DNA of 64,000 nt, taken from positions 1,174,140 through 1,238,139 of the forward strand of contig CAWHBU010000003.1 of assembly GCA_963827685.1 (NCBI GenBank). The letters run 5' to 3'. The position numbers were made by a program, and so were the translations under genes. Shown piece by piece: positions 2 to 12,034 of this stretch. Below the pieces are notes generated by a model that ran no database searches, was not told where the DNA came from, and saw nothing but the letters and a program-made list of their open reading frames with translations. Origin of the DNA: an uncultured delta proteobacterium. Lineage in GTDB: Bacteria > Desulfobacterota > BSN033 > UBA1163. The stretch's first letter is position 1. Every line of letters starts with the position of its first letter.

Positions 2-1600
2 CCGGAACAATATGGTAGCCTTTATATGTTTTTCATTCATATAGAAAACCTCATTGATTTCCACCTCACCCCGCAGGAAAAAGTCCAAGCGGATTCTTTT
101 GTAAAATTGAAAGATCAAGAGAGATGGTATTTTGTCGGAGATCACGAGGAATTGGATGCCACAAAAGTCTCACCAACTGATGGAAAGTATTCTAAATTAA
201 TGGGCAAAAGCATTGGAGAAAAAGTTACTTTTGAGGATAAGTATCGTTCAACCACGACTGAACATATAATAGAAAATATCCTGCCGATCGAAAAGTACAT
301 CCTTTGGCAGTGCATGCATCATGCCCAACAACTATCACTCGAACGTAGATGGAATGTGATGGAAATGATCGAGGTCCCCACAACGGGAGAAGGGATAGAC
401 ACAAAATACATTGTTGCCCGACTAGAGGATGAAAGAAAGAAGAAAGGCGGCCTTTTTGATCTCTATTGTCGAGAGAATGTTCCTTTAGCATTTCTCGCGG
501 TTAATGAAGGAGGTCTGAGAGGAGCAATCGCGCGCATAACCCAGGAAAACAGCGGTTTTATAAAATTCAGTTCAGGAGATCCAACAGAGCTAAATCACCA
601 GAAAGAGGTAGCAAAGAGAATCATTTCGGGTCAGCCTTTCTATATTGACGGCACATCCGCCTTAGTGCTTTCAGAACCGGGCATACTGGAAAAGATTTAC
701 GAGCACTTACCAAATCTCAAGGTTCCCCAGTCCGTAATCGCTTTCTTGCTAGAAACTGAAGGAAAATTCCGATACATGCCTGGACTTGCTGGATATATGG
801 GATACGCCCAGGGAAGATTAACGTTTTCATCTGTTGATGAGGAAACGAGAGCAAGTATTCAAAGAAACTTTAAACATTCAATAAAACTTCTTGAATCCAA
901 GCCCCAAAATATCACCGCCATTTCTACTGCAAATAAAGTAAATTCTTTCTGTGAACAAGAGGTCCAAGCAGAATTGTGTGATTCATGCGTATTAGCCCAA
1001 AAAGAAAGGGTCCCTGTTCTTACCGAAGATTTTCTCTATCTCCAAGCAAACGAACTTGATACTAAAAAGAAGGCCCCCGAATACTGTTCTGCTTTTGCTC
1101 TGGCAAGGGTGCTGTACGAACAAAAGAAACTCACTTTCGAAGATTATTTGAAGTTTTTTGCTTACCTCTCTTCCTATCGTTTCAGATTCCTCCCCATCGC
1201 CACTGAGGATATCGGAAAGGCCGTGTTTGGTGATGGCACAATAATAATAGTACAACCTGAAAGAATTAGATGGTTCAATTTCCCTCTGACGCTGTCAGAA
1301 CAATATGGTGTTCCTTTCGACCGCGCGTTTAGCGTGGTGGCAGGATTCCTGACGAACGTTGTGATTGATGATACCATATTCCCAGAAACCGCGGAACGAA
1401 TCTTTGTTGAAATCCTCTCCACTTTCCCAACAGAAAAAGATAAGAGAATCTTGGGAAAAATGTTCTTAACAATCAGCATTAAAGAAATAAATAGGATTCG
1501 GCAAACAATATTTATTGGAACCACGGCACAAAAGAAAATCGCTCTGCTTTCGCAGATTGCGGAAATTTATAGTCCAAAAACCAATCTATGGAAACCTTAA
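2..1600 (+). CDS. C-terminal part of a large protein with GreA/GreB-C-like and PIN-like domains (5' truncated by the window)
   Basis: Frame is open from base 2. 'LMGKSIGEKVTF' resembles the GreA/B C-terminus. 'YIDGTSAL' and 'VLTEDFLY' resemble PIN acidic motifs. Confidence 0.55.
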   Translation, partial: PEQYGSLYMFFIHIENLIDFHLTPQEKVQADSFVKLKDQERWYFVGDHEELDATKVSPTDGKYSKLMGKSIGEKVTFEDKYRSTTTEHIIENILPIEKYILWQCMHHAQQLSLERRWNVMEMIEVPTTGEGIDTKYIVARLEDERKKKGGLFDLYCRENVPLAFLAVNEGGLRGAIARITQENSGFIKFSSGDPTELNHQKEVAKRIISGQPFYIDGTSALVLSEPGILEKIYEHLPNLKVPQSVIAFLLETEGKFRYMPGLAGYMGYAQGRLTFSSVDEETRASIQRNFKHSIKLLESKPQNITAISTANKVNSFCEQEVQAELCDSCVLAQKERVPVLTEDFLYLQANELDTKKKAPEYCSAFALARVLYEQKKLTFEDYLKFFAYLSSYRFRFLPIATEDIGKAVFGDGTIIIVQPERIRWFNFPLTLSEQYGVPFDRAFSVVAGFLTNVVIDDTIFPETAERIFVEILSTFPTEKDKRILGKMFLTISIKEINRIRQTIFIGTTAQKKIALLSQIAEIYSPKTNLWKP

Positions 1601-1613
1601 GAAAAGTAGGCCT

Positions 1614-1710
1614 GGGGGCAGACTTAAATATTGACATCTAAGGACAAAAAGAAAGATTGTCTTGTCTTTGAAGAGAGTAAGGAAAAATCTCAATTATTGA
1701 GTCTAACCCG
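1614..1710. repeat. 97-bp inverted-repeat element, copy 1, followed by an IS-end-like tail to ~1765
   Basis: GGGGGCAGACTTAAATATTGA...TCAATTATTGAGTCTAACCC; near-identical to the copies at 4174, 6406, 7711 and 9731. Confidence 0.9.
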
Positions 1711-1801
1711 AAAGATCCACGAAAACACCATTCTCACTGGGAAAAAAGGGCTTTTCCTATAGGCTGCTTCGTTGCATGGGAAGGAACAGAATTGAATTAC
1801 C

Positions 1802-2386
1802 ATGAAACAATTCGGACTTACTGAAGATCAGTTCCAAGAGTTAATGCGGCTTTCTCGTCTCTACCGCCGAGAGGCTGACCGATCTATGGACGCAAAGGCT
1901 TATCTTGCGGGTTGTGTGATGATTGGGGCTGCCCTTGAAGCTTGCCTTCTTGCGACGTGTGACTGCTATTCTGACGAGATTCCAGAAGAACTGATTCCTA
2001 AACAGAAGAATGGCAAGCCGAAATACCTCTTGGACTGGACTCTTTTTCAGCTTCTTCGCGTAGCGCGCGAGTGTGGCTGGCTTCCAGCACACCTGAACCT
2101 ACACGAGAATTGGGACGAAAAGCGGGCTGATATCGGGGATTACGCTGTTGTGCTCAAGGAGATGCGAAATTTGGTGCACGCAAGCTGTCACATCGCAGAT
2201 TTCCCGAAATCCCGAGTCACTAAACGGCGAATGGAGATGTGTTTCGAGATTTTGGAGGTAGCCAGCACGCACTTGCAGGCCAAACTCTATCAGTCACTGA
2301 AGGTGGCAATGGAAGAAGAGGAAAAAAAACACCGAGCGAGTCGCCCCACCGCATGGCCGATAAATCCGGCTCACAGTGAGCCGTAG
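1802..2386 (+). CDS. Cassette gene, HEPN/Abi-like protein
   Basis: ORF with 'GAALEACL' helix and RNxxH motif (MRNLVH). Confidence 0.5.
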   Translation: MKQFGLTEDQFQELMRLSRLYRREADRSMDAKAYLAGCVMIGAALEACLLATCDCYSDEIPEELIPKQKNGKPKYLLDWTLFQLLRVARECGWLPAHLNLHENWDEKRADIGDYAVVLKEMRNLVHASCHIADFPKSRVTKRRMEMCFEILEVASTHLQAKLYQSLKVAMEEEEKKHRASRPTAWPINPAHSEP

Positions 2387-2394
2387 CGTTCGCC
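2331..2394 (+). other. Degenerate attC site
   Basis: Internal GCCGATAAATCCGG is shared with the site at 3335; ends in GTTCGCC at 2388. Confidence 0.55.
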
Positions 2395-2433
2395 TTACAT
2401 CAAAATATTTCGACGATCTATCCAGAGTGAGAA

Positions 2434-3297
2434 ATGAATACCAATACAAGCTTGATGGAAAAATTTATTGCAGATAGGAAGAAGCTGAAATCATATTCTA
2501 GCCTGAAATATGAATCGCGTGCTCCAAGACCATACCTTTTCATTGACCAGCCTGAAGTTCTTGCAGGCTTTGCCGGGTATTTAAAATTCCAATGCTTAAA
2601 GAAGGATCCCACGACCAAAGTCTTTTGCAGGGGACAGGTTAACGACTACCCAAGCATTCCAAGTCTTTTCAGAGGTAAAAACTTGTCCGATGACCACCTT
2701 AAACGAAGGCTGGCGGCATATGAAGCACTGGTCTGCAAAGCCAAGTACCTTTACAACGCCAGTCGCTTTCAGCAAGAGAACATTCATGCAATATTGCAGC
2801 ATTATGGCCTAAAAACCCCCTGGCTCGATTTAGTCGACAATGTCTTCGTTGCTCTTTGGTTTGCAACTCACAAATATTTCGGTGAGAATAATGGAAATAA
2901 GGCGCACTACAAAATATCAAGAAAACAGTTTGGCCATATTTACTTTTACGCAACCACCCCAAAAACAAAGTATTTCGATTTAAGAGAAAAGCATTCATCG
3001 TTGAGCCTACGCTTGCATGTGCAGCATGGAATTTCAATTACGAGAAAAGAAATAAAATGGACTCTCGCGAACAGATGTCTTGACGACCATCTTGTTGCAA
3101 CAGTTAAATTCCCAAATGGAAAAGAATGGCGGCCTAGTGGCCAGATATTTTCCACAAGGTTTCTTTTTCCATCTACCGACCTCGATAATACATACAAATA
3201 TCTAAAGATGAAGAAATTCAGCGAATTACTGAACGAGATCAGCCACAGATACCAACTAGGGGAAGATGAACTTGGCAGAGTCGCCGATTTCGGATAG
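2434..3297 (+). CDS. FRG domain protein (cassette)
   Basis: Motifs FCRGQ, PSLFR and QHYGLKTPWLD...VALWFA. Confidence 0.85.
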   Translation: MNTNTSLMEKFIADRKKLKSYSSLKYESRAPRPYLFIDQPEVLAGFAGYLKFQCLKKDPTTKVFCRGQVNDYPSIPSLFRGKNLSDDHLKRRLAAYEALVCKAKYLYNASRFQQENIHAILQHYGLKTPWLDLVDNVFVALWFATHKYFGENNGNKAHYKISRKQFGHIYFYATTPKTKYFDLREKHSSLSLRLHVQHGISITRKEIKWTLANRCLDDHLVATVKFPNGKEWRPSGQIFSTRFLFPSTDLDNTYKYLKMKKFSELLNEISHRYQLGEDELGRVADFG

Positions 3298-3334
3298 TCT
3301 TTTTCAAAAAGAAAAGATAAATGCACCAAAAAAA

Positions 3335-3397
3335 GCCGAACCAATGTATGCAGCGGATCGCCGATAAATCCGGTCCCTGGTGAACTTTGTGCTAGGA
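3335..3397 (+). other. attC site
   Basis: GCCGAAC...GCTAGGA, 63 bp imperfect palindrome just after the stop codon. R'' matches the GTTCGCC at the cassette start at 6/7 positions. Confidence 0.65.
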
Positions 3398-3410
3398 GCA
3401 AAACGAAACA

Positions 3411-4013
3411 ATGAATTCCAACCAGTTCGCTAAGCTCAAGGGGTGGGTAGATTACGACCGCCCATTCCTCTCGCAATTGACCTACAAGCAGAAAATAATT
3501 TGGTTACGGCGGCGATTGAACCTAACGCTGATCAAACCACTGAAATATGTTTATCGAGGAGTGTCGCGTAGCTCGCAACAATCGGCACTCTTAATTCTTG
3601 CCACGATAATTTGTTGTGCAATCGAGGCTATGGGCAAATTTTATATCGGGGGAAGAGGCAACAACCATTCCAGGTTCAATGGGTTTCTAAGAGGATTCAT
3701 GCACAGTGATTTTATGAGTCACAGCATCCAGGGAATGAGGTATGGCGATATCCTCTGGTATTACTTTCGCAATGGCTTGGCTCATGGGTTTGCCATTTGC
3801 CATGGTGGATTTGAATACCAGGACAGTTATTTTTCAGTCAAGATTAATGGTCCCAAAGAAACTCTCTTAATCGACCCTAAGAACTTTCTCGACAACTTTT
3901 TAAACGGAGTTAAGAAATACCTCGACGCTCTCCACAAATCGTCACCAACAAGAGACAAAGTCGCTCGAGATTTCGAAAAGGTTTTCAAGAGTGTGTTCAT
4001 CGATGGGAAATAG
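3411..4013 (+). CDS. Cassette gene, HEPN-like protein
   Basis: RxxxxH motif FRNGLAH; similar in layout to the ORF at 41454-41963. Confidence 0.5.
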   Translation: MNSNQFAKLKGWVDYDRPFLSQLTYKQKIIWLRRRLNLTLIKPLKYVYRGVSRSSQQSALLILATIICCAIEAMGKFYIGGRGNNHSRFNGFLRGFMHSDFMSHSIQGMRYGDILWYYFRNGLAHGFAICHGGFEYQDSYFSVKINGPKETLLIDPKNFLDNFLNGVKKYLDALHKSSPTRDKVARDFEKVFKSVFIDGK

Positions 4014-4016
4014 GGC

Positions 4017-4084
4017 CCCCAACAAATCATTCGACCGGATGTTCAAAACGTCAGTCACTTCAAACGGAGACACGTCCGTAAGGC
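4017..4084 (+). other. Degenerate attC site
   Basis: CCCCAAC just after the stop codon; possible decayed R' GTAAGGC at 4078. Confidence 0.4.
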
Positions 4085-4120
4085 CACCGCCAGAGGACCT
4101 GCCAGGGGAGGACCTGCCAG

Positions 4121-4315
4121 GGGGACGTAGTTGAAAAATAACACTTTACAGATACGGAAATGTATAGAACCCTGGGGTCAGACTTGAATATTGACATCTA
4201 AGGACAAAAAGAAAGAATGTCTTGTCTCTGAAGAGAGTAAGGAAAAATCTCAATGATTGATTCTGACCCCGAATACACCGTTCTCACTCGTCAAAACGAC
4301 TTTTTCTACAGGCTC
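4121..4315. repeat. Full composite element: module A (4121-4173) + 97-bp IR core (4174-4270) + IS-end-like tail (4271-4315)
   Basis: GGGGACGTAGTTGAAAAATAACACTTTACAGAT, then GGGGTCAGA...TCTGACCCC, then ...TTTTTCTACAGGCTC abutting GTTATAC at 4316. Confidence 0.9.
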
Positions 4316-4340
4316 GTTATACCCAAGGAGGCGTAGCCGA

Positions 4341-5777
4341 ATGACCGCTCCCAAGCTTTTCATTTCCTACAGCTGGTCAAGCGCCGAACACGAACAACGG
4401 ATCCTGGATCTCGCAACAGAGTTGCGCGAGTCCGGCGTGGACGTCATCTTGGACAAATGGGATCTCAAGGAAGGGCATGACGCCGTTGTTTTCATGGAGC
4501 AGATGGTTACCAATCCTGAGATCAAGAAGGTCGCAATCATCTGCGATGAGACATATGCAGCGAAGGCCGATGGCCGTGCTGAAGGCGTAGGAGCAGAGAC
4601 ACAGATCATCTCAAAGGAAGTCTACGAGAACCAGGCCCAGGAGAAATTTGTCGCTGTCGTGACCGAAAAGGACGAAAACGGGAAGCCGTTTCTCCCAACG
4701 TACTACAAATCGCGTATTTACATTGATCTTAGCGAAGCCGACCGGTACGCAGAAAATTTCGAGCGACTGTTAAGATGGATATTTGACAAGCCCCTCTACG
4801 TCAAACCCGAGCTTGGAAACAGGCCATCTTTCTTATCTGAAGGCGCACATGTTTCTCTGGGCACGGCTGTCCTCTTCAAGAGGTGCATAGATGCCATAAA
4901 AAACCATAAGGCATACGCTGAGGGCGCGTTCGACGAATACTGCAGTTCATTTACATCAAATCTGGAACGCTTCAGGTTATTAAAACCGGAAGGAGAGTTT
5001 GATGATGCGGTAGTCAAGAACATAGAAGAATTTCTGCCATATCGCAATGAACTTATTCAACTATTGACTACGGTTGCTCGGTACTCTCCAACCCCGGAAT
5101 TCACACAACGAATTCATCGTCTGTTCGAGAGCTTGATCCCGTATATGAACAGGGCTCCGAACATTACACATTGGAACGAGTGGGATTTCGATAACTTCAA
5201 GTTCACAGTACACGAGTTGTTCCTGTATGCGTTGGCTGTGCTCTTGAAGGATGATCGGCTATATCAAGCGAATCTTCTTCTTCAACAGCAATATTATTTG
5301 CCAGGGAATTCAGACTATGGTCGAGATGCAATGGTCAGTTTTGTGGTTTTCCGGCAGCACATGCTATCGCTAGAACATCGCAACACCCGATTGGATCTCC
5401 GCCGGGCATCCATTCGAGCCGATTTATTGAAGGAACGATGTAACGGAACAGGAATCGACTTCCGTTATCTAATGCAAGCGGATTTCGTCGCCTTCATGCG
5501 CGCGGAGGTTGAAGCGAAGAACGACTGGAGCCGTTGGTGGCCTGAAACGTTGCTCTATCTCGGGCACTTCAATAGCCCATTCGAAATTTTTGCCAGATCT
5601 GTTTCGAAGACCTACTTCGATAGGGCCAAGGTATTACTTGCCATTGATACTCCGAAGGATCTAGAGCCTTTACTCAAGAGCTATCAAGACTGCTCACGAA
5701 CATTACCCAGATGGCCGTTCCAAGGCTTCAACCCTGCAGTCCTGCTTGGATACGAACACCTAGCCACTCGGCCGTAA
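4341..5777 (+). CDS. TIR/SEFIR domain protein (cassette)
   Basis: N-terminal KLFISYSW...GVDVILDKWDL...GVGAETQII; RBS AGGAGG before the ATG at 4341; stop lies inside CCGTAAC. Confidence 0.85.
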   Translation: MTAPKLFISYSWSSAEHEQRILDLATELRESGVDVILDKWDLKEGHDAVVFMEQMVTNPEIKKVAIICDETYAAKADGRAEGVGAETQIISKEVYENQAQEKFVAVVTEKDENGKPFLPTYYKSRIYIDLSEADRYAENFERLLRWIFDKPLYVKPELGNRPSFLSEGAHVSLGTAVLFKRCIDAIKNHKAYAEGAFDEYCSSFTSNLERFRLLKPEGEFDDAVVKNIEEFLPYRNELIQLLTTVARYSPTPEFTQRIHRLFESLIPYMNRAPNITHWNEWDFDNFKFTVHELFLYALAVLLKDDRLYQANLLLQQQYYLPGNSDYGRDAMVSFVVFRQHMLSLEHRNTRLDLRRASIRADLLKERCNGTGIDFRYLMQADFVAFMRAEVEAKNDWSRWWPETLLYLGHFNSPFEIFARSVSKTYFDRAKVLLAIDTPKDLEPLLKSYQDCSRTLPRWPFQGFNPAVLLGYEHLATRP

Positions 5778-5916
5778 CCAGGACGGGAAATGGGGGACGT
5801 AGGGAAAAATGCAACTCTTCAGTGTTGATACAAGATTAACCATTTTACGCAGCTAATTTAATGCTAGAAGGAGAAGCTTTGAAGGTTAGACAGAATGTTG
5901 GAGGTCGATTTTTTGA

Positions 5917-6372
5917 ATGAAAGCAACGATTCGATCAAAATCTGATCAGGCGTTTAGACAGTCTGTCCGACCACTTGGTTTGTTTTTCTTGCTAGCCAGC
6001 ATTATGATGATCCAGGTCTTCTTTGTTTTTCCAGATGAAGACTGGAGTCAATTTCCATTCCCTTTTCTCCACTCGGTAGTTGGGAAAAAGTTGTTAATTG
6101 CCTTTTCTGATGTCTTGCTTTTTTATATCGGTTTTGGTCTTCTGAGAAAATGGAAAATTGCATGGTATACGCTATTCGTATATATCATTAGTGGAACAAT
6201 ATGGATAGCTTTAGGGGCTATCTTTGATTATTTCCCAGGTAATGTTCCAAAATACCTTATGGGTATGGCAGCCATCTTGATCAATGGGGGAATAGCTATA
6301 GGCATCTACTTTGCTACGCGTCCTGCTTTCGTTAATTTACAGAGGGACCAGATGGACGTAGTTGAAAAATAA
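5917..6372 (+). CDS. Hypothetical membrane protein; the 3' end runs into repeat module A
   Basis: Four hydrophobic segments; last codons overlap GGACGTAGTTGAAAAATAA. Confidence 0.6.
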   Translation: MKATIRSKSDQAFRQSVRPLGLFFLLASIMMIQVFFVFPDEDWSQFPFPFLHSVVGKKLLIAFSDVLLFYIGFGLLRKWKIAWYTLFVYIISGTIWIALGAIFDYFPGNVPKYLMGMAAILINGGIAIGIYFATRPAFVNLQRDQMDVVEK

Positions 6373-6501
6373 CACTTTACAGATATAGAAATGTGAAGAA
6401 GCCCTGGGGCCAGACTTAAATATTGAAATCTAAGGACAAAAAGAAAGATTGTCTGTCTTTGACGAGAGTAAGGAAAAATCTCAATAATTGTTTCTGACCC
6501 C
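6353..6501. repeat. Module A + IR core, copy 3 (core 6406-6501)
   Basis: Direct sequence similarity to 4121-4270. Confidence 0.9.
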
Positions 6502-6598
6502 GAAGATTTTTATTCCTGACGCGGATTAGCCGCGTCAGCTTTTGGGTATTGCTGATTGCCCCCGCAGGTTATGCAAATCGTTAGGGCATATACAGACA

Positions 6599-7204
6599 AT
6601 GATGTCGAACCTCCACCATAGCGATGATTCAGTGGATTTCTGGGTGTGGATTAATCCGCAGAATTGGCTCGTAAAGCACCAGATTACTTTCACCGGAGGT
6701 TTCACGTCAGGCGGTTTGCTCAAGAAGGGAGCGTCAAATCTGATGTTCATTCCTAATCCTGAGTTCAAGTCAGATATCACCCCTTTTCAATTCGGCATCA
6801 TGCGGGAGTACATGGCGGAATATAACCTCGAACTTGGGAGAGAACGTTATTTTGCTGACTACCCCAGCCGTTTGAACGCAATCTACCTCTTTACCTCTGA
6901 GGCCGAAGCGCATAAATACAAAGAGAGACATATGCAACACGTAGGCGACAGAATCCTCAAGAAAGTTCACTCGGTGACCCCTTGCGTGTATTCCGTCCAT
7001 GATTCCAGTTGGGTGGACTTTCTTCGTCTGGCGCACTCTGTGGATTCGGTGTCCCTTGATAATGTTAGTAAGGCATACTGGGGTGGCGTGCGCGTCGAGG
7101 ACAACAAGTTGTTGTCAATGGGAGCGCCTTGGTCACAAGAGGCAATCTTCGAAGCTTTGTTCCTTGGCCGTATTGAGTTCTATGACAGAAACCTTGATCG
7201 CTAA
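6599..7204 (+). CDS. Cassette gene, DUF2441-like hypothetical protein
   Basis: 'RERYFADYPSRLNAIYLF' motif; follows GTTAGGG at 6580; TAA stop lies within CGCTAAC. Confidence 0.45.
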   Translation: MMSNLHHSDDSVDFWVWINPQNWLVKHQITFTGGFTSGGLLKKGASNLMFIPNPEFKSDITPFQFGIMREYMAEYNLELGRERYFADYPSRLNAIYLFTSEAEAHKYKERHMQHVGDRILKKVHSVTPCVYSVHDSSWVDFLRLAHSVDSVSLDNVSKAYWGGVRVEDNKLLSMGAPWSQEAIFEALFLGRIEFYDRNLDR

Positions 7205-7265
7205 CAACTCGTGCACCGGACGTAGAGCATAACTGCGTGCCACGCCAGTGAGCACCGCGTTGGGC
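7199..7265 (+). other. attC site
   Basis: CGCTAAC...GTTGGGC, 67 bp, inner boxes TGCACCGG/CCAGTGAGCA, canonical GTTRRRY. Confidence 0.8.
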
Positions 7266-7348
7266 TGATATTGAATCAGCAAAGTCTTAAGATGGACTCA
7301 AGTCTTTTATGCACGATATTGGCAGCTGAAAAGGAGGTGGATGTTCTG

Positions 7349-7663
7349 ATGATTAACAGCATCATAGCTATCATTTCGTTGTTAACATCCATAATAGCGA
7401 TAGTTATTTCTATAATGGCATTCTCGTGGAATAGAAAAATTTCAATGCTTCAGGCAGACGATAACATAATTAATTATGTGTCTGCTATTTTCAATTTTCT
7501 TGAAAAATCAAAATCGCTAGGACCAGATGAACGTGAACTATTTAAAGCTCTTCTCCGTGATAGCACCTTTCTGGGGCCAACTACTAAGGAGTTGATAACA
7601 GAGAAATACTTCTCCCGTTGGCAAGTTGATGAAGAGCTGGAGAAATATTTTAAATCTATTTAG
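7349..7663 (+). CDS. Small membrane-anchored hypothetical protein (cassette)
   Basis: RBS AGGAGGTG; N-terminal TM helix; cassette bounded by GTTGGGC (7259) and GCCCAAC (7677). Confidence 0.6.
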   Translation: MINSIIAIISLLTSIIAIVISIMAFSWNRKISMLQADDNIINYVSAIFNFLEKSKSLGPDERELFKALLRDSTFLGPTTKELITEKYFSRWQVDEELEKYFKSI

Positions 7664-7710
7664 TGAAAATTTCGAAGCCCAACCAGTAGGTTTAGTAGGA
7701 CTGCAGGCAT

Positions 7711-7861
7711 GGGGTCAGATTTAAATATTGCCCTTAAAGGACAAAAAGAAAGAATACCTTGTCTTTGAAGAGGGTAAGGAAAAATCTAAATAATTATGTC
7801 TGACCCGAAAGACTCCGAAAACACCCTTCTCACTGGTCAAAAGGACTTTTTCTACAGGCTC
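7711..7861. repeat. IR core copy 4 (7711-7807) + IS-end-like tail, interrupting an attC
   Basis: Follows the attC left end GCCCAAC (7677); tail TTTTTCTACAGGCTC abuts GTTGGTC (7862). Confidence 0.88.
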
Positions 7862-7877
7862 GTTGGTCGGAGAAGAT

Positions 7878-8216
7878 ATGAAATGTCCGCAGTGCGATAA
7901 TGACTTCTTGTTGACGTGGAAGCGATATATCAAAGCCCCATTGGGCAGGGTGTCCTGTCCTTCTTGCCATGCAAAGCTCGTATGCACGCATCGTTGGTTC
8001 TATTGGCCACTCATGATTCTAGGTTGTTGTATTCTGGGTATTCCTCTGGCCATATTGGGTGCGAACTATGGTGTTGCCGGCGCCCTGACGGGTTGGTTTA
8101 TCGGTGCGTTCGGCGTCGGAATCCCATTTGATAGGTTTCTTGAGATCAGGCTCTCAGTGCTGAGGATGAGACAGAATGAGACGTCCAACAAGCCGACTGG
8201 AGGCGATGTCCAATAG
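7878..8216 (+). CDS. Zn-ribbon membrane protein (cassette)
   Basis: CPQC...CPSC followed by two TM helices. Confidence 0.65.
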   Translation: MKCPQCDNDFLLTWKRYIKAPLGRVSCPSCHAKLVCTHRWFYWPLMILGCCILGIPLAILGANYGVAGALTGWFIGAFGVGIPFDRFLEIRLSVLRMRQNETSNKPTGGDVQ

Positions 8217-8242
8217 GGCGCGCCTCATTCGCGATGTTATGA
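8183..8242 (+). other. attC site
   Basis: GTCCAAC...GTTATGA, 60 bp, inner GAGGCG/CGCCTC. Confidence 0.75.
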
Positions 8243-8255
8243 GCAGACGAGGCAA

Positions 8256-8768
8256 ATGGAATACCTGACAGACATCATGAAACCAGAAGACTGGCAGCAA
8301 GTCCGGTCGATCTACCTCGAAGGCATCGCCACGGGCAATTCTACCTTTGAGGCAGATGTTCCTGATTGGGAGAAGTGGGAGTCTGCTCACCTACCGGAAC
8401 ACCGGTTAGTGGTCAGAGAAGGCGATAGTATTCTGGCATGGGCCGCACTGAGCCCCGTTTCCAGCCGCTGCGTTTACTTGGGTGTAGCGGAACTCAGTCT
8501 GTACGTGGCGGCCGGGCATAGAGGTAGAGGCATAGGGTCAGCCCTGCTTAAGGCAATCATAAACTCAACCGAAAAGGCCGGGCTGTGGACACTGCAAGGA
8601 GGCATCTTCCCTGAGAATACACCGAGCCTCCGCCTCGTGAAAAAGCATGGATTCAAGGAGATCGGAAGACGTGAGAGGATAGGCAAGATGACCTACGGTG
8701 ATCTTGCCGGAACTTGGCGAGACGTTATTTTGGTAGAACGCCGAAGCATTGTGACAGGCATAGATTGA
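8256..8768 (+). CDS. GNAT N-acetyltransferase, phosphinothricin-acetyltransferase/YncA-like (cassette)
   Basis: IYLEGIATGNSTFE, GVAELSLYV, RGRGIG acetyl-CoA motif, FPENTPS. Confidence 0.85.
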   Translation: MEYLTDIMKPEDWQQVRSIYLEGIATGNSTFEADVPDWEKWESAHLPEHRLVVREGDSILAWAALSPVSSRCVYLGVAELSLYVAAGHRGRGIGSALLKAIINSTEKAGLWTLQGGIFPENTPSLRLVKKHGFKEIGRRERIGKMTYGDLAGTWRDVILVERRSIVTGID

Positions 8769-8775
8769 AAAGACC

Positions 8776-8967
8776 TCATAACAAGGCGCTGAACCGGATC
8801 GCCCATAAGACGAGGAACGGCTCGGGGGGAAGTAATTGAAGAATAGCACTTTACAGATATGGAAATGTGTAGAGGCTTGGGATCAGACTTAAATATTGAG
8901 TTAGTGATATGATACCACAGTGACTATCGCCCAATAAGCGGGCTTCCCGGTGAGTTTCAGGTGAGTG
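8776..8967 (+). other. attC split by module A and the left end of the IR core (8826-8899)
   Basis: TCATAAC left end; ATCGCCCA(A)TAAG on both sides of the insert; right arm CCCGGTGAG and degenerate core GTGAGTG. Confidence 0.6.
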
Positions 8968-9074
8968 ATAAATAATTGGGATTTTGGAGATCCCATGTTT
9001 TGTCCGAAATGTAGAACTGAATATCGTGAAGGATTTTATGAAAATGGCAATCATATATAACTGTCAGGGCCCAT

Positions 9075-9686
9075 ATGTTGGAGGAAAACATGGAGCAGGG
9101 AAACGCCAAAGCCATCGTTATCTGTCCTTTCTGTAAGTCGGAAAACCCTGAAATAAGTATTTGCCTTACATGTGGGGCACAACTAAAGAGAGAAAAGTTG
9201 AATGCCAAAGACCTGATCCCAAGACCGGTATGGTTAACCGTCCTCGCCGGTCTTTACGCACTCCTTTTTATCAAAAATATGTTTCTTATTTTATTTCAAA
9301 AAAATGCAGCAGCCATCGTTATATTAATCATAATTGCCATTATCGAGATTTCAATGGCTTACGGTTTGTGGCAGCTTAAGAAATGGGCATGGACAGTAGT
9401 AGTCATAAGTTGCTTTGCAGGTCTCATATTCGTGTGGCTCATCCCGATATTACTGTGGTTAAATCCTTCCGAAGGCTTAAGATTATTCTACAAGGCTTTC
9501 TTTCATGTGACCGTTCGCCATCAGAATTCAATTGACTTCTTCAGGGCAGCAGCAATAAAAGGATCTTTGATAGGTGCCATCCTTACATCGATAATAAATG
9601 TTTTAATCTTGGTATATTTCTATAGTCCGCGCATACGTGAAATTTTCTCAGATAATCCTGTATTTTGGAAAGCGGCAAGCTTGTAA
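9075..9686 (+). CDS. Zn-ribbon membrane protein
   Basis: CPFC...CLTC plus about four TM helices. Confidence 0.65.
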   Translation: MLEENMEQGNAKAIVICPFCKSENPEISICLTCGAQLKREKLNAKDLIPRPVWLTVLAGLYALLFIKNMFLILFQKNAAAIVILIIIAIIEISMAYGLWQLKKWAWTVVVISCFAGLIFVWLIPILLWLNPSEGLRLFYKAFFHVTVRHQNSIDFFRAAAIKGSLIGAILTSIINVLILVYFYSPRIREIFSDNPVFWKAASL

Positions 9687-9730
9687 TGCTATAATCATGA
9701 ACATTAAACAATAGTGGTAAGAGGAACCCC

Positions 9731-9827
9731 GGGGTCAGACTTAAATATTGACATCTAAGGACAAAAAGAAAGATTGTCTTGTGTCTGAAGAGAGTAAGGA
9801 AAAATCTCAATAATTGAGTTTGACCCC
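9731..9827. repeat. 97-bp IR core, copy 6
   Basis: GGGGTCAGACTTAAATATTGA...TCAATAATTGAGTTTGACCCC; 21-bp terminal IR matching at 18/21. Confidence 0.92.
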
Positions 9828-9862
9828 CGAAGATGGCGCCTTAACATAAGTGAGAAGAAATT

Positions 9863-10291
9863 ATGCGACACCTGAAGATTCACACACTTGAGAAAGGTTG
9901 GTACGACAAGGACGAGGTATTGCTCCATGCCGCCTTCCAGCTTCTTATAGATTTTATTGAGCAAGAGAAACCAGACGAGATTGTTGACTGGAATGTAGGT
10001 GAATTACATAGAAAAGCTTGGAAAGAAATCAAATCGTTCTATAACTGGTGGAAAAAAGAGCGTCCAGCACGGAAAAGCCCACTCGATGATAATAGGCTAA
10101 AGCATCCTCCTTTGAGATTAGAAAAGATTCCAGGTTCTGCTTTATGTAAGATGGTCGAACCCGACAAAAAGAAATACGCAAGTTATTATCGTGCTTTGCG
10201 GGAACATTGGAGGCTTGAGCAAAAGTGGGGAGAAGAAGATCAATGCAATCTTCATAGGTTAATCGACATCAGGAAATTTCTATGGACATAG
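9863..10291 (+). CDS. Hypothetical protein (last cassette)
   Basis: Clean ORF followed by TGCCAAC (10296), a truncated attC left end. Confidence 0.65.
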   Translation: MRHLKIHTLEKGWYDKDEVLLHAAFQLLIDFIEQEKPDEIVDWNVGELHRKAWKEIKSFYNWWKKERPARKSPLDDNRLKHPPLRLEKIPGSALCKMVEPDKKKYASYYRALREHWRLEQKWGEEDQCNLHRLIDIRKFLWT

Positions 10292-10499
10292 AAGATGCCA
10301 ACAATCCACTCCATCGGACGGCTGATATGTGAAAGGAAAGGGTTCGAGTCTGGTTTTGACTCTTACTCATTTCAACGGGGGATGACATTCATTGGACGCT
10401 GGGCAGGGTTTAGAACAATAAGAAAAATCTCATAGAGAATCCTCAGACCTTTTCAACACGGCTCTTTACCAACCCGCAGATTACTCAATAGACTATGTT

Positions 10500-10907
10500 T
10501 CAGTGAATTTTGCAGTCCTTCAAGAATTGCTGAGGGGTCAATATCTTGATTCCCACGTATTCATTCATTGCTTTTAATCCCTTATCACCCGTAATAATGG
10601 CTTCTGCTTTTAAGGCCACTGCACACTCTATAAATTTGTCATCATCAGGGTCACCTTTAACTGCCTTTATCTTCGGTGTTTTTGTCGTAAAGAGGATATT
10701 GAAACCTTTGGCAAAAAGAGAAAGAAGCTCTTCGAATTCCCTTTCATCCCCTAATCCAATCCTCTGCAACACTTCGATATATTCATCAAGAATATTCTTC
10801 GATACGCAAAGACTTATCTTCCCTTCTTTCCAGAGGTCGATGATCTTCTTCGGATTGCCTCCAAAAAAAGACGAGACAAAGATATTGGTATCGACAACGA
10901 CTTTCAT
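10500..10907 (-). CDS. PIN-family toxin
   Basis: VVVDTNIFVS, DPDDDKFIECA and IITGD motifs. Confidence 0.9.
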   Translation of the reverse strand: MKVVVDTNIFVSSFFGGNPKKIIDLWKEGKISLCVSKNILDEYIEVLQRIGLGDEREFEELLSLFAKGFNILFTTKTPKIKAVKGDPDDDKFIECAVALKAEAIITGDKGLKAMNEYVGIKILTPQQFLKDCKIH

Positions 10908-11152
10908 CCCCGGCTTTTTCTTACCTCTTTGATCGTCTTATCGATATCTCTTTGTCCTACCCCTTTAGATTTCAACTTCCCGCCGATTCTGCCCCACAGG
11001 TCGTCAATATAGGTGCCGATGTCCCTCTCTTTGATATAGTCTTCTATCAGTTCCCTCACCATCTGGCTTGTCGTCTTCCCTTCCACCCTGGCAAGCTTAT
11101 TAAATTTGTCCTTAACCTCGGGATCCATCCTAATAATCATCTGGGTTGTCAT
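10904..11152 (-). CDS. Ribbon-helix-helix (CopG-like) antitoxin
   Basis: MTTQMIIRMD...SQMVRELIEDYI; RBS GGAGG; overlaps the toxin start (ATGA). Confidence 0.85.
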   Translation of the reverse strand: MTTQMIIRMDPEVKDKFNKLARVEGKTTSQMVRELIEDYIKERDIGTYIDDLWGRIGGKLKSKGVGQRDIDKTIKEVRKSRG

Positions 11153-11312
11153 GCGGCTAACCTCCAACAATATATATTTTGTATATATTGTATAGCAATT
11201 TAAAACAACTGTCAATGGCTAAGAAATCCGGGGTGGACAACGTTCCTTGGGCACTGGGCAGGTTATTTTGTCCCTTGCATCTGTAACTATATTCAGTTAT
11301 ATTATTTTCGGA

Positions 11313-11546
11313 ATGGGAATCGAAGAAGACCTCTCCAGGATAAAGCAGAATTCAAAGGGGGTAAGGTTTAAAGAGATAGAGAGAATCATTTTAGGGGCAG
11401 GATTTAAAAGGGTAAATATCAGAGGAAGCCACTATGTTTACAAGAAAGGAAACAGGATTTTAACAGTTGTCAAACCTCATGGAGGGCGTAAGCATTGCCA
11501 TTGGTTGGATGTTAAAGATGTGATCAGAATCCTGGAGGAGGATTGA
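11313..11546 (+). CDS. hicA: HicA-family toxin
   Basis: GF...RGSHYVY...VVKPH; upstream TTGCAT-N17-TATATT with palindrome TAACT-N6-AGTTA, possibly leaderless. Confidence 0.85.
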   Translation: MGIEEDLSRIKQNSKGVRFKEIERIILGAGFKRVNIRGSHYVYKKGNRILTVVKPHGGRKHCHWLDVKDVIRILEED

Positions 11547-11549
11547 CCT

Positions 11550-11909
11550 ATGAGAAAGAATAAAAAAGAGGAACTTTTGGGTTATGAGATAAAAATCATT
11601 CCAGACAAAGAATCTGGATACCTGGCCGTGCGGTTTCCTGATTTCCCGAGTATCATCACCGGAGGATATAGCATTGAAGAAACCATTAAGAATGCTCAAG
11701 AAGCTCTAGAATTAACGATAGACACAATGAAAAAACATAGAATACCTCTTCCCAAACCAAAGACCCGTTTCAGCGGTCAGTTTAATGTCAGGGTTCCAAA
11801 AGACCTCCATAGAGAATTGGTGAGAAAAGCGGAGGAGGAGGGTGTGAGTTTAAACGCACTTATAACCTATCTCTTATCCCGGTCTATCAAAATGGAAAAG
11901 GCTGCCTGA
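11550..11909 (+). CDS. hicB: HicB-family antitoxin
   Basis: FPDFPSIITGGYSIEE and SGQFNVRVPKDLH...EGVSLN. Confidence 0.9.
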   Translation: MRKNKKEELLGYEIKIIPDKESGYLAVRFPDFPSIITGGYSIEETIKNAQEALELTIDTMKKHRIPLPKPKTRFSGQFNVRVPKDLHRELVRKAEEEGVSLNALITYLLSRSIKMEKAA

Positions 11910-12034
11910 TCTTACCCACCCTATTTCCCCGTTGACACGTCCAGGGTGAAACGCCTCGGGGTCAGGTAACATTTTTTGTGAGGCAACTCGTCCTATAACC
12001 CAAAGGGTTTCCCCTTCCCACTTTTTTTATACCG

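Follow-up and report, generated by a model that had tools for sequence, protein, structure and literature searches.

A probable TIRtron-derived miniature and IS1182-like remnants at the cassette junctions of an integron-like array

In the portions of the literature consulted here, Di Nocera et al. 2013 (PMC3733652) described TIRYT genes and TIRtron units with the motif GGGGWSAS at the terminal repeats and reported repeat families of TIRtron ends in some genomes, Quentin et al. 2018 (PMC6006769) placed most TIRYTs in subclass 2.1 of the TnpA-REP-like Y1 transposases, with a Bac_DnaA_C-like C-terminus, and the two papers together record solo, dimeric and grouped repeats of such ends in some genomes. 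The word integron does not occur in either paper. Here we describe a 64-kb stretch of contig CAWHBU010000003.1 from an uncultured delta proteobacterium (hereafter the window; coordinates without a contig prefix are window positions), in which a 97-nt repeat with inverted arms, the core, recurs at the junctions of an integron-like cassette array. We consider it likely that the core is a gene-less miniature derived from a TIRtron, and that its array copies are old relics of one subfamily, type i, which lie in attC slots, several of them beside IS1182-like ends.

The evidence for this reading comes from longer forms of the same element in relatives. We searched 40 relatives, including 14 other genomes of the genus, and recovered the core in nine of those 14. 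In G023, from another genus of the family, the left and right arms of the core stand ~1 kb apart with a 314-aa open reading frame (ORF) between them, and in the congener G003 the spacing is again ~1 kb, with a gene that is 86% identical and ends early, at 267 aa. A scan for the left end across all species, with one genome taken per species, returned 26 loci, comprising five long forms (1005-1012 nt), seven copies of 97 nt, one of 52 nt and 13 with no right end downstream. Each of the five long forms starts GGGGTCAG and finishes CTGACCCC, with the transposase gene in between. The records found by the scan are titled as Syntrophaceae/Thermodesulfobacteriota, Nitrospirota and others; the same element with sharp ends is seen in unrelated contexts and in records titled as different phyla.

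The 314-aa protein matched the Pfam family Y1_Tnp at 5.3e-14, and its HUH motif (H60 and H62) and Y119 were invariant across 14 aligned homologues. A profile of these homologues matched DnaA domain IV among solved structures over its C-terminal third (1.4e-10) and E. coli TnpA-REP (4er8) over its N-terminal part (1.4e-4); the single transposase sequence found no match among solved structures, and Pfam reported no DnaA C-terminal domain in the single 314-aa protein. These matches identify the product of the long form as an HUH/Y1 tyrosine transposase with a DnaA-domain-IV-like C-terminus. In alignment A4 the miniature keeps ~30 nt of the left end of the long form and ~27 nt of its right end, and the core as a whole reads as left end, ~40 nt of other sequence and right end; judged by sequence, it is a miniature derivative sharing both termini with the long form. 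It is because the ~1.0-kb forms of relatives share these ends and match the published TIRtron/TIRYT type that we favor a TIRtron origin.

A sequence-only reading of the same stretch had proposed a non-autonomous element whose mobilizing enzyme is not encoded in the window. Both points hold, given that the core carries no gene, that relatives carry long forms with a transposase between the same ends, and that no cognate copy was found in the window or elsewhere in this assembly. That reading had suggested a search for a long copy in which these inverted repeats enclose a transposase gene, and such copies exist as the ~1005-1012-bp HUH/Y1 (RAYT-like) forms of G003, G023 and five of the 26 scan loci. 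TIRYT-type homologues number one to 11 per genome; in the genome to which the window belongs (G000; 5.23 Mb, assembly 94.5% complete, contigs prefixed C) the best paralogues are 42% and 36% identical, and the terminal repeats beside them differ from the core arms.

Within the window, the core 21-mer matched seven times at up to three mismatches, against a mean of 0.00 in 100 shuffles. Its + strand matches lie at 1614, 4174, 6406 and 8879 (one mismatch each), 7711 (two) and 9731 (none), and the sole match on the - strand, 9807-9827 (three mismatches), belongs to the copy at 9731 as its right arm. The scan thereby recovered every core site that had been read from the letters, namely five full copies and a left end alone at 8879. 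The 21-bp terminal inverted repeats described in that reading do exist as arms but are near-perfect in the 9731 copy only; in the other four full copies (1614, 4174, 6406 and 7711) the right arm shows more than three mismatches to the left. Alignment of the five full copies spans ~97-108 nt, with 84-100% identity; each lies between two ORFs in cassette orientation (+) and ends 36-97 nt upstream of the next start codon. Neither the 21-mer scan nor alignment found a further copy in the remaining 54 kb of the window, and the 20 kb upstream of it held no match to the core or to the accompanying repeats described below (module A, the tail and miniature b). Absence of other full copies from the 64 kb thus stands, but the element is not confined to this stretch, since three further full copies elsewhere (C8:29066, C8:35164 and C3:137277) bring the genome total to eight.

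The core lies in a one-directional run of short ORFs at 1600-11900, among which Pfam recognized FRG, TIR/SEFIR, GNAT and HicA/HicB domains and many of which had no Pfam match. We detected attC sites with a covariance model, R1, built from 11 local attCs, having discarded inverted-repeat and regular-expression scans as too strict or too unspecific; since R1 covers type-A attC only, the absence of a match is weak evidence. Its three matches in the window are all on the + strand and all inside the short-ORF run. The integrase gene intI persists as a C-terminal fragment only (C3:782919-783275, L010; 191 bits, model positions 197-315), ~390 kb away on the same contig. G010 carries the same fragment (C1:720662-721045) in what appears to be the same kind of locus, and G023, from another genus of the family, has a full intI (426.7 bits). 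The window holds an integron-like cassette array that has lost its integrase. Conserved genes border the array, and the segment 13085-15563 is syntenic with G010, whose same locus holds different cassettes.

Old, partly decayed copies fill about half of the cassette junctions of this array, and at least three attC sites are disrupted. Three such junctions had been described from the sequence, and each description was borne out. The 7711 copy follows the R''-like box GCCCAAC of the preceding cassette, which ends 27 nt before it. The attC at 8776 is interrupted by module A and a core left arm, with ATCGCCCA at 8798 and 8926 flanking the insert. The site ending at 6586 lacks its left ~18 nt and R'' box, which are replaced by module A and core; its three full-length type-B relatives in the genome, at C3:243851, C3:957378 and C2:593773, have the R'' box. 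In addition, the 4174 copy is preceded by the apparent left half of a type-A attC. Type-B attC (~90 nt) is very uniform throughout the genus, with ~25 matches to 6515-6583 in the 14 other genomes. The comparison of empty and filled attC alleles that the sequence-only reading had suggested was achieved in part: the congener G006 has the same GNAT cassette with its attC uninterrupted, but the insert in the window allele is a truncated composite of module A and left arm.

Cassette boundaries were mapped at GTT/TT past the tail, or past the 13 nt that follow the core, and they behave like those of integrons. The cassette 9863-10291 also occurs in G001 and G008 behind a plain attC, with homology beginning exactly at the boundary TT, 9841, and the cassette 7878-8216 occurs in G012 behind a plain attC, with homology beginning at 7861. 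In G010 the boundary of cassette 7878 carries an IS1182-like right end.

The downstream tail that had been noted is indeed common to the copies at 1614, 4174 and 7711, and by its sequence matches it is the right end of a second mobile family. Its last 19 nt occur at 27 sites in the genome at up to three mismatches, and equal the right terminal repeat both of a 1.77-kb insertion sequence (IS) and of a ~165-nt miniature element, b. The IS encodes a 517-aa protein with the Pfam domains DDE_Tnp_1_6, DUF772 and DDE_Tnp_1, and has terminal inverted repeats and 3-bp duplications of GTT or ATT; we refer to the element as IS1182-like. Copies of element b that were read start right after the GTT closing an attC-like site and stop before another GTT, and three R1 matches end exactly where an IS or miniature starts (C4:261330-261440, C4:102248-102311 and C6:417645-417729). 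An attC match is found no more than 2 kb from 13 of these 27 sites, compared with 1.9% of random positions. The position right after the attC GTT, with GTT on both sides, at which the IS1182-like element and the miniature sit is the cassette joining point.

Alignment A6 showed that the window tails are the right part of element b. At the very position held by the core in the window copies, b has a 16-nt mini-hairpin formed by the 7 outermost nucleotides of each of the two core arms. We infer that the window composite is a nest of attC boundary, IS1182-like miniature and TIRtron hairpin, the left part of which was lost or replaced; insertion of the IS1182-like element or its miniature at the GTT of the attC R' box would explain the exact coincidence of the composite's end with the cassette boundary. 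Elsewhere in G000, further TIRtron pieces adjoin these ends: the tail follows a TIRtron remnant at C6:355k, and an attC and the left terminal repeat stand ahead of a TIRYT gene at C4:98-99k. One further record (loci L138 and L152) has two copies of a TIRtron left end followed after ~100 nt by an IS1182-like right end finishing GTTAGG; fusions of the two families are thus also seen outside G000.

As had been read from the sequence, module A precedes the core three times (4121, 6353 and 8826) and occurs once in partial form (5792). A 25-mer from it matched the genome 12 times at up to five mismatches, always after a G-rich stretch and in varied contexts (C3:1077658, C10:28501 and C4:510242 among others), and some copies read TTGAAA-N18-TATAxx. 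Module A is an independent repeat. We also considered it as a diverged IS1182-like left repeat and rejected this, the likeness by eye being confined to GTAG and an A-run and alignment A6 failing to align the two.

The age and distribution of the core copies are uneven between array and dispersed loci. We collected 17 distinct full copies, which form two subfamilies. Type i occupies the arrays of G000, G004, G006, G010 and G011, with partial cores beside attC matches in G009 and G012, and the dispersed type ii shares identical ends with the long form; attC matches accompany type-i loci (G004, G009, G010, G011 and G012) and none lies beside type-ii or long-form loci. Five of the eight copies in G000 fall within 8.2 kb of the 5.23-Mb genome, for which the binomial P of 5e-13 assumes independent insertions, an assumption that may not hold here, and four of eight are within 2 kb of an attC-model match, again compared with 1.9% of random positions. 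All eight core matches in G010 are in the orthologous array. Confinement to cassette arrays, as suggested by the sequence-only reading, is thus partial: these counts agree with it, but the remaining three copies in G000 lie away from any attC detected by R1, in repeat-rich regions adjoining kinase and response-regulator gene fragments. A search for orthologous empty sites of these three found none, and their flanks are other repeat families. The regions in question, C8:27000-37500 and C3:134000-138000, are dense with other short repeats of 100-460 nt that occur in many genomes of the genus.

When folded as single-stranded DNA, dispersed copies did far better than shuffles, with z-scores of -6.0 and -6.6, which the window copies (-0.9 to -3.2) did not, and none of 33 predicted pairs showed a compensatory change. 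G011 has the same junction of ORF and core as the 1614 copy, with 96% identity across 1400-1715. The idea that the element repeatedly and freshly invades the array is accordingly not supported, since the array copies form an old subfamily, decayed and present at orthologous junctions of different species; they look like old, inherited, decaying insertions whose arrangement owes much to recombination. Type-i cores were also seen in records titled Actinomycetota and Candidatus Methanoperedens (loci L145/L146 and L143/L144). L145/L146 additionally carry cassettes of the genus, encoding a HigA-like protein, a zinc-ribbon membrane protein (window 7878-8216) and a methyltransferase, a pattern that either mis-binned contigs or movement of cassettes from host to host could produce. 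Beyond HicAB, at the array's distal end, a solo GGGGTCAGGT at 11958-11967 represents the tip of another TIRtron repeat family, whose repeats flank the TIRYT gene at C4:98198-99037.

Table 1. Coordinates of core copies, accompanying repeats and attC sites in the window, and of IS1182-like elements elsewhere in G000
Feature	Position	Strand	Basis or remark
Core copy 1 (type i)	1614..1710	+	Begins 14 nt past stop of ORF 26-1600; ORF and core junction also in congener G011
Tail variant, remnant of IS1182-like miniature right end	1711..1773	+	Ends at GTT 1771-1773
attC type A, apparently intact	2331..2390	+	R1 39 bits, E 4e-8
attC type A	3335..3397	+	R1 41.8 bits
Module A	4121..4173	+	Repeat alignment
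Core copy 2	4174..4270	+	21-mer match and alignment
Tail, right part of miniature b	4271..4318	+	IS1182-like right terminal repeat 4306-4315; ends at GTT 4316-4318
Partial module A, coreless	5792..5830	+	Repeat alignment
Module A	6353..6405	+	Overlaps stop codon of ORF 5917-6372
Core copy 3	6406..6501	+	21-mer match and alignment
Type-B attC, right two-thirds	6515..6586	+	R'' box and left-arm start gone; comparison with three full-length genome members
attC type A, intact	7199..7265	+	R1 42.5 bits; also a seed of the model
R''-like box GCCCAAC of preceding cassette	7677..7683	+	Near-complementary GTTGGTC at 7862-7868
Core copy 4	7711..7807	+	21-mer match and alignment
Tail	7808..7864	+	Ends at GTT 7862-7864, the boundary of cassette 7878-8216
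Left half of GNAT cassette attC	8777..8809	+	Intact allele in G006
Module A within interrupted attC	8826..8878	+	Repeat alignment
Core left arm alone	8879..8899	+	21-mer match
Right half of interrupted GNAT attC	8926..8975	+	Resumes after insert
Core copy 5, best-kept hairpin of the window	9731..9827	+	Next cassette starts at 9841
Miniature b copies, G000	C4:261415-261600, C3:1074860-1075045, C5:314400-314600, C10:30190-30375, C10:31080-31265
IS1182-like insertion sequence copies, G000 (examples)	C3:133012-134784, C6:417730-418315

Several other explanations could account for a repeat concentrated at cassette junctions. The core may have been a cassette passenger, inserted on a few ancient occasions into the variable middle of attC and then spread by IntI and homologous recombination with no further transposition. 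The type-i copies are consistent with this, being one lineage found only beside attC matches in six genomes of the genus, and cassette 7878-8216 has core and tail upstream in G000, G006 and G009 behind a different cassette each time. Assembled metagenome contigs likewise join modules at the core edges (4270 to 6349, 8871 to 9724 and 4253 to 1608), the join of 8871 to 9724 giving module A with a full core. We nonetheless regard a pure passenger as unlikely: the cassettes at 7878 and 9863 begin elsewhere (G012, and G001 and G008, respectively) at the GTT/TT boundary with no core, the attC arms that IntI needs are absent at several core-bearing junctions, and intI is truncated in G000 and G010.

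Active homing to attC, in which a TIRYT acting on folded single-stranded DNA prefers attC hairpins, or the fork context that folds them, is in our judgment improbable. The clustering of five of eight copies in the G000 array and of all eight matches in that of G010, the uniform cassette orientation of the copies and the analogy drawn in print between IntI and Y1 transposases, both of which work on folded single strands, would all suit such a preference. The attC-targeting proposed in the sequence-only reading also holds insofar as at least four of the six window copies (4174, 6406, 7711 and 8879) lie inside or replace parts of an attC, but the insertion point varies between the central loop, the left arm and the interval between R'' and R'. 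Because this position differs at every junction, nothing shows site-specific targeting. Moreover, the sole comparison of a filled with an intact attC involves a truncated composite of module A and left arm, no attC-model match is near the long forms or the intact type-ii copies, and a single old subfamily, common to different species, makes up the array copies, so that a few insertion events followed by recombination or inheritance suffice. The association with arrays is strong, but the element is neither confined to arrays nor position-specific. We attach equally little probability to a broader proposal, in which, in arrays of the genus that lost their integrase, two unrelated families both home to attC, the IS1182-like DDE element and its miniature by inserting exactly at the crossover point between G and TT, and the TIRYT hairpin element by nesting in these or in the folded attC, and their chimeras replace attC sites and fix and reshuffle cassettes independently of an integrase.

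A promoter role of the copies is possible; that the core, module A or both were exapted as a mobile promoter or 5'-untranslated-region structure for the downstream cassette seems to us slightly less probable still than homing. An integrase-linked Pc promoter is absent from the array, all five full copies are oriented toward the following ORF at the 36-97-nt distance given above, the left repeat of the long form has TTGACA followed after ~15-16 nt by TATAAT, shortly ahead of the start of the transposase gene, and promoter-like hexamer pairs occur within the copies at 4191, 6459 and 7765. These hexamers are weak and differ between copies, however, a promoter scan found 16 sites against a shuffle mean of 20.2 (fewer than in shuffles), and the copies show no Rfam match, no covariation and decaying hairpins. 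With Rfam 15 the window had no match at gathering score, and at E<=1 over 1500-10000 the one match, at 3332-3516, was unrelated, with none on the core.

Finally, that the core hairpin replaces attC as a recombination site for IntI or another recombinase, as the sequence-only reading had entertained, is highly improbable: it fills the attC slot at the junctions at 1614 and 9731, where no attC is recognizable, but no core is matched by R1 or has R'' and R' boxes of its own, mappable cassette boundaries lie at GTT/TT beyond the core and not at it, the element also occurs outside arrays and around a transposase gene, and nothing indicates such a role. We likewise rejected the core, or 7677-7868, as an oversized attC, the arms by R'' and R' being non-complementary by eye and R1 giving no match.

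Under the preferred TIRtron-derived reading, retention of the left and right TIRtron ends around ~40 nt of filler would allow a single strand of the core to form one long hairpin, which a cognate TIRYT may have mobilized in trans on single-stranded DNA; with no cognate TIRYT in G000, its copies there would be stranded. The type-i copies in the window occupy the 3' non-coding slot of cassettes, the place of the attC, several of them nested next to an IS1182-like right end. We propose that a TIRtron nested in an IS1182-like miniature and then collapsed to a mini-hairpin, and that the IS1182-like element and miniature b insert at the GTT of the attC R' box, duplicating GTT. Destruction or truncation of attC sites in an array with a truncated integrase gene would leave cassettes fixed, and repeats of 85-95% identity would let homologous recombination reshuffle their neighbors.

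A number of observations weigh against this reading. Module A, with 12 copies in varied contexts, is left unexplained by a TIRtron miniature. The 314-aa protein scored 76.1 bits against NCBIfam REP_Tyr_transpos, just below the cut-off of 80, and because the assembly is 94.5% complete a cognate transposase could be missing from it. The clustering in the arrays of two genomes and the contact of at least four of six copies with attC remnants fit real targeting as well as passive accumulation. Short flanks (..GCCT before and GAAGAC after) are conserved even at unrelated loci, making the true ends of the moved unit uncertain. For a complete core insertion we found no clean pair of filled and empty sites, target duplication or fixed target, so transposition of the 97-nt unit is inferred from distribution.

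Folded single strands are the substrate of HUH/Y1 transposases and of integron integrases alike, and a Y1-derived element concentrated in attC slots would offer a natural test of substrate competition between the two systems. Half of the junctions in this array carry transposon debris instead of an intact attC, and in arrays of this kind a program that relies on attC models will consequently overlook cassettes or misplace their limits. The locus further illustrates how cassettes may freeze in place once the integrase is lost and later be reshuffled by ordinary recombination between repeats. For integron specialists, the insertion of an IS1182-like element and its miniature at the GTT of the attC R' box may be of greater interest than the core itself; the literature consulted on IS1182 and attC holds no report of such a preference.

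How the locus compares with known systems depends on which of its parts is considered. As described in the sources consulted, IS1111-attC elements and group IIC-attC introns are likewise mobile elements found inside the attCs of arrays in one orientation, but they occupy a fixed attC position and use a DEDD transposase, or intron RNA and reverse transcriptase, whereas the core varies in position, is 97 nt long, has an HUH/Y1 parent enzyme and gives no intron match in Rfam. The IS1182 family accounts for the tail, which is the right terminal repeat of an IS with a DDE_Tnp_1_6/DUF772 transposase, inverted repeats and a 3-bp duplication; what differs here is the location in G000 of this IS and of miniature b, at the GTT of attC R' boxes. 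REPIN-RAYT systems (PMC5581495; Bertels and Rainey 2011), as far as the portions consulted describe them, resemble the core in having two inverted copies of a sequence that flanks a transposase gene, which together form a hairpin of ~100 nt, and in having no autonomy and presumed movement by a Y1 enzyme encoded elsewhere. The core arms, however, lack a GTAG-tagged REP palindrome, and the TIRYT family is multi-copy (up to 11 per genome) where RAYT is single-copy and vertically inherited; a multi-copy family with near-identical ends in records of different phyla fits an IS-like horizontal element and not a RAYT. This miniature, its two subfamilies, the IS1182-like chimeras and the concentration in arrays were not found in the parts consulted of the literature on REPINs and RAYTs, TIRYTs, miniature inverted-repeat transposable elements at attC and insertion sequences at attC. 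The possibility that the element had already been catalogued is thus borne out for its class, which is in print as TIRtron/TIRYT, but not for this miniature or its array setting, which is undescribed in those sources. It is the TIRtron/TIRYT class that the long form matches most fully, with its ~315-aa Y1/HUH transposase, its terminal inverted repeats in place of REP palindromes, repeats that begin GGGGTCAG in core and long form alike, which fits the published GGGGWSAS, and a DnaA-C-like helix-turn-helix at the C-terminus of the transposase. The present case departs from that class in that the miniature is a defined unit of 97 nt, with two arms around a conserved ~40-nt filler, that it occurs in records titled as several phyla and that one subfamily is tied to cassette arrays.

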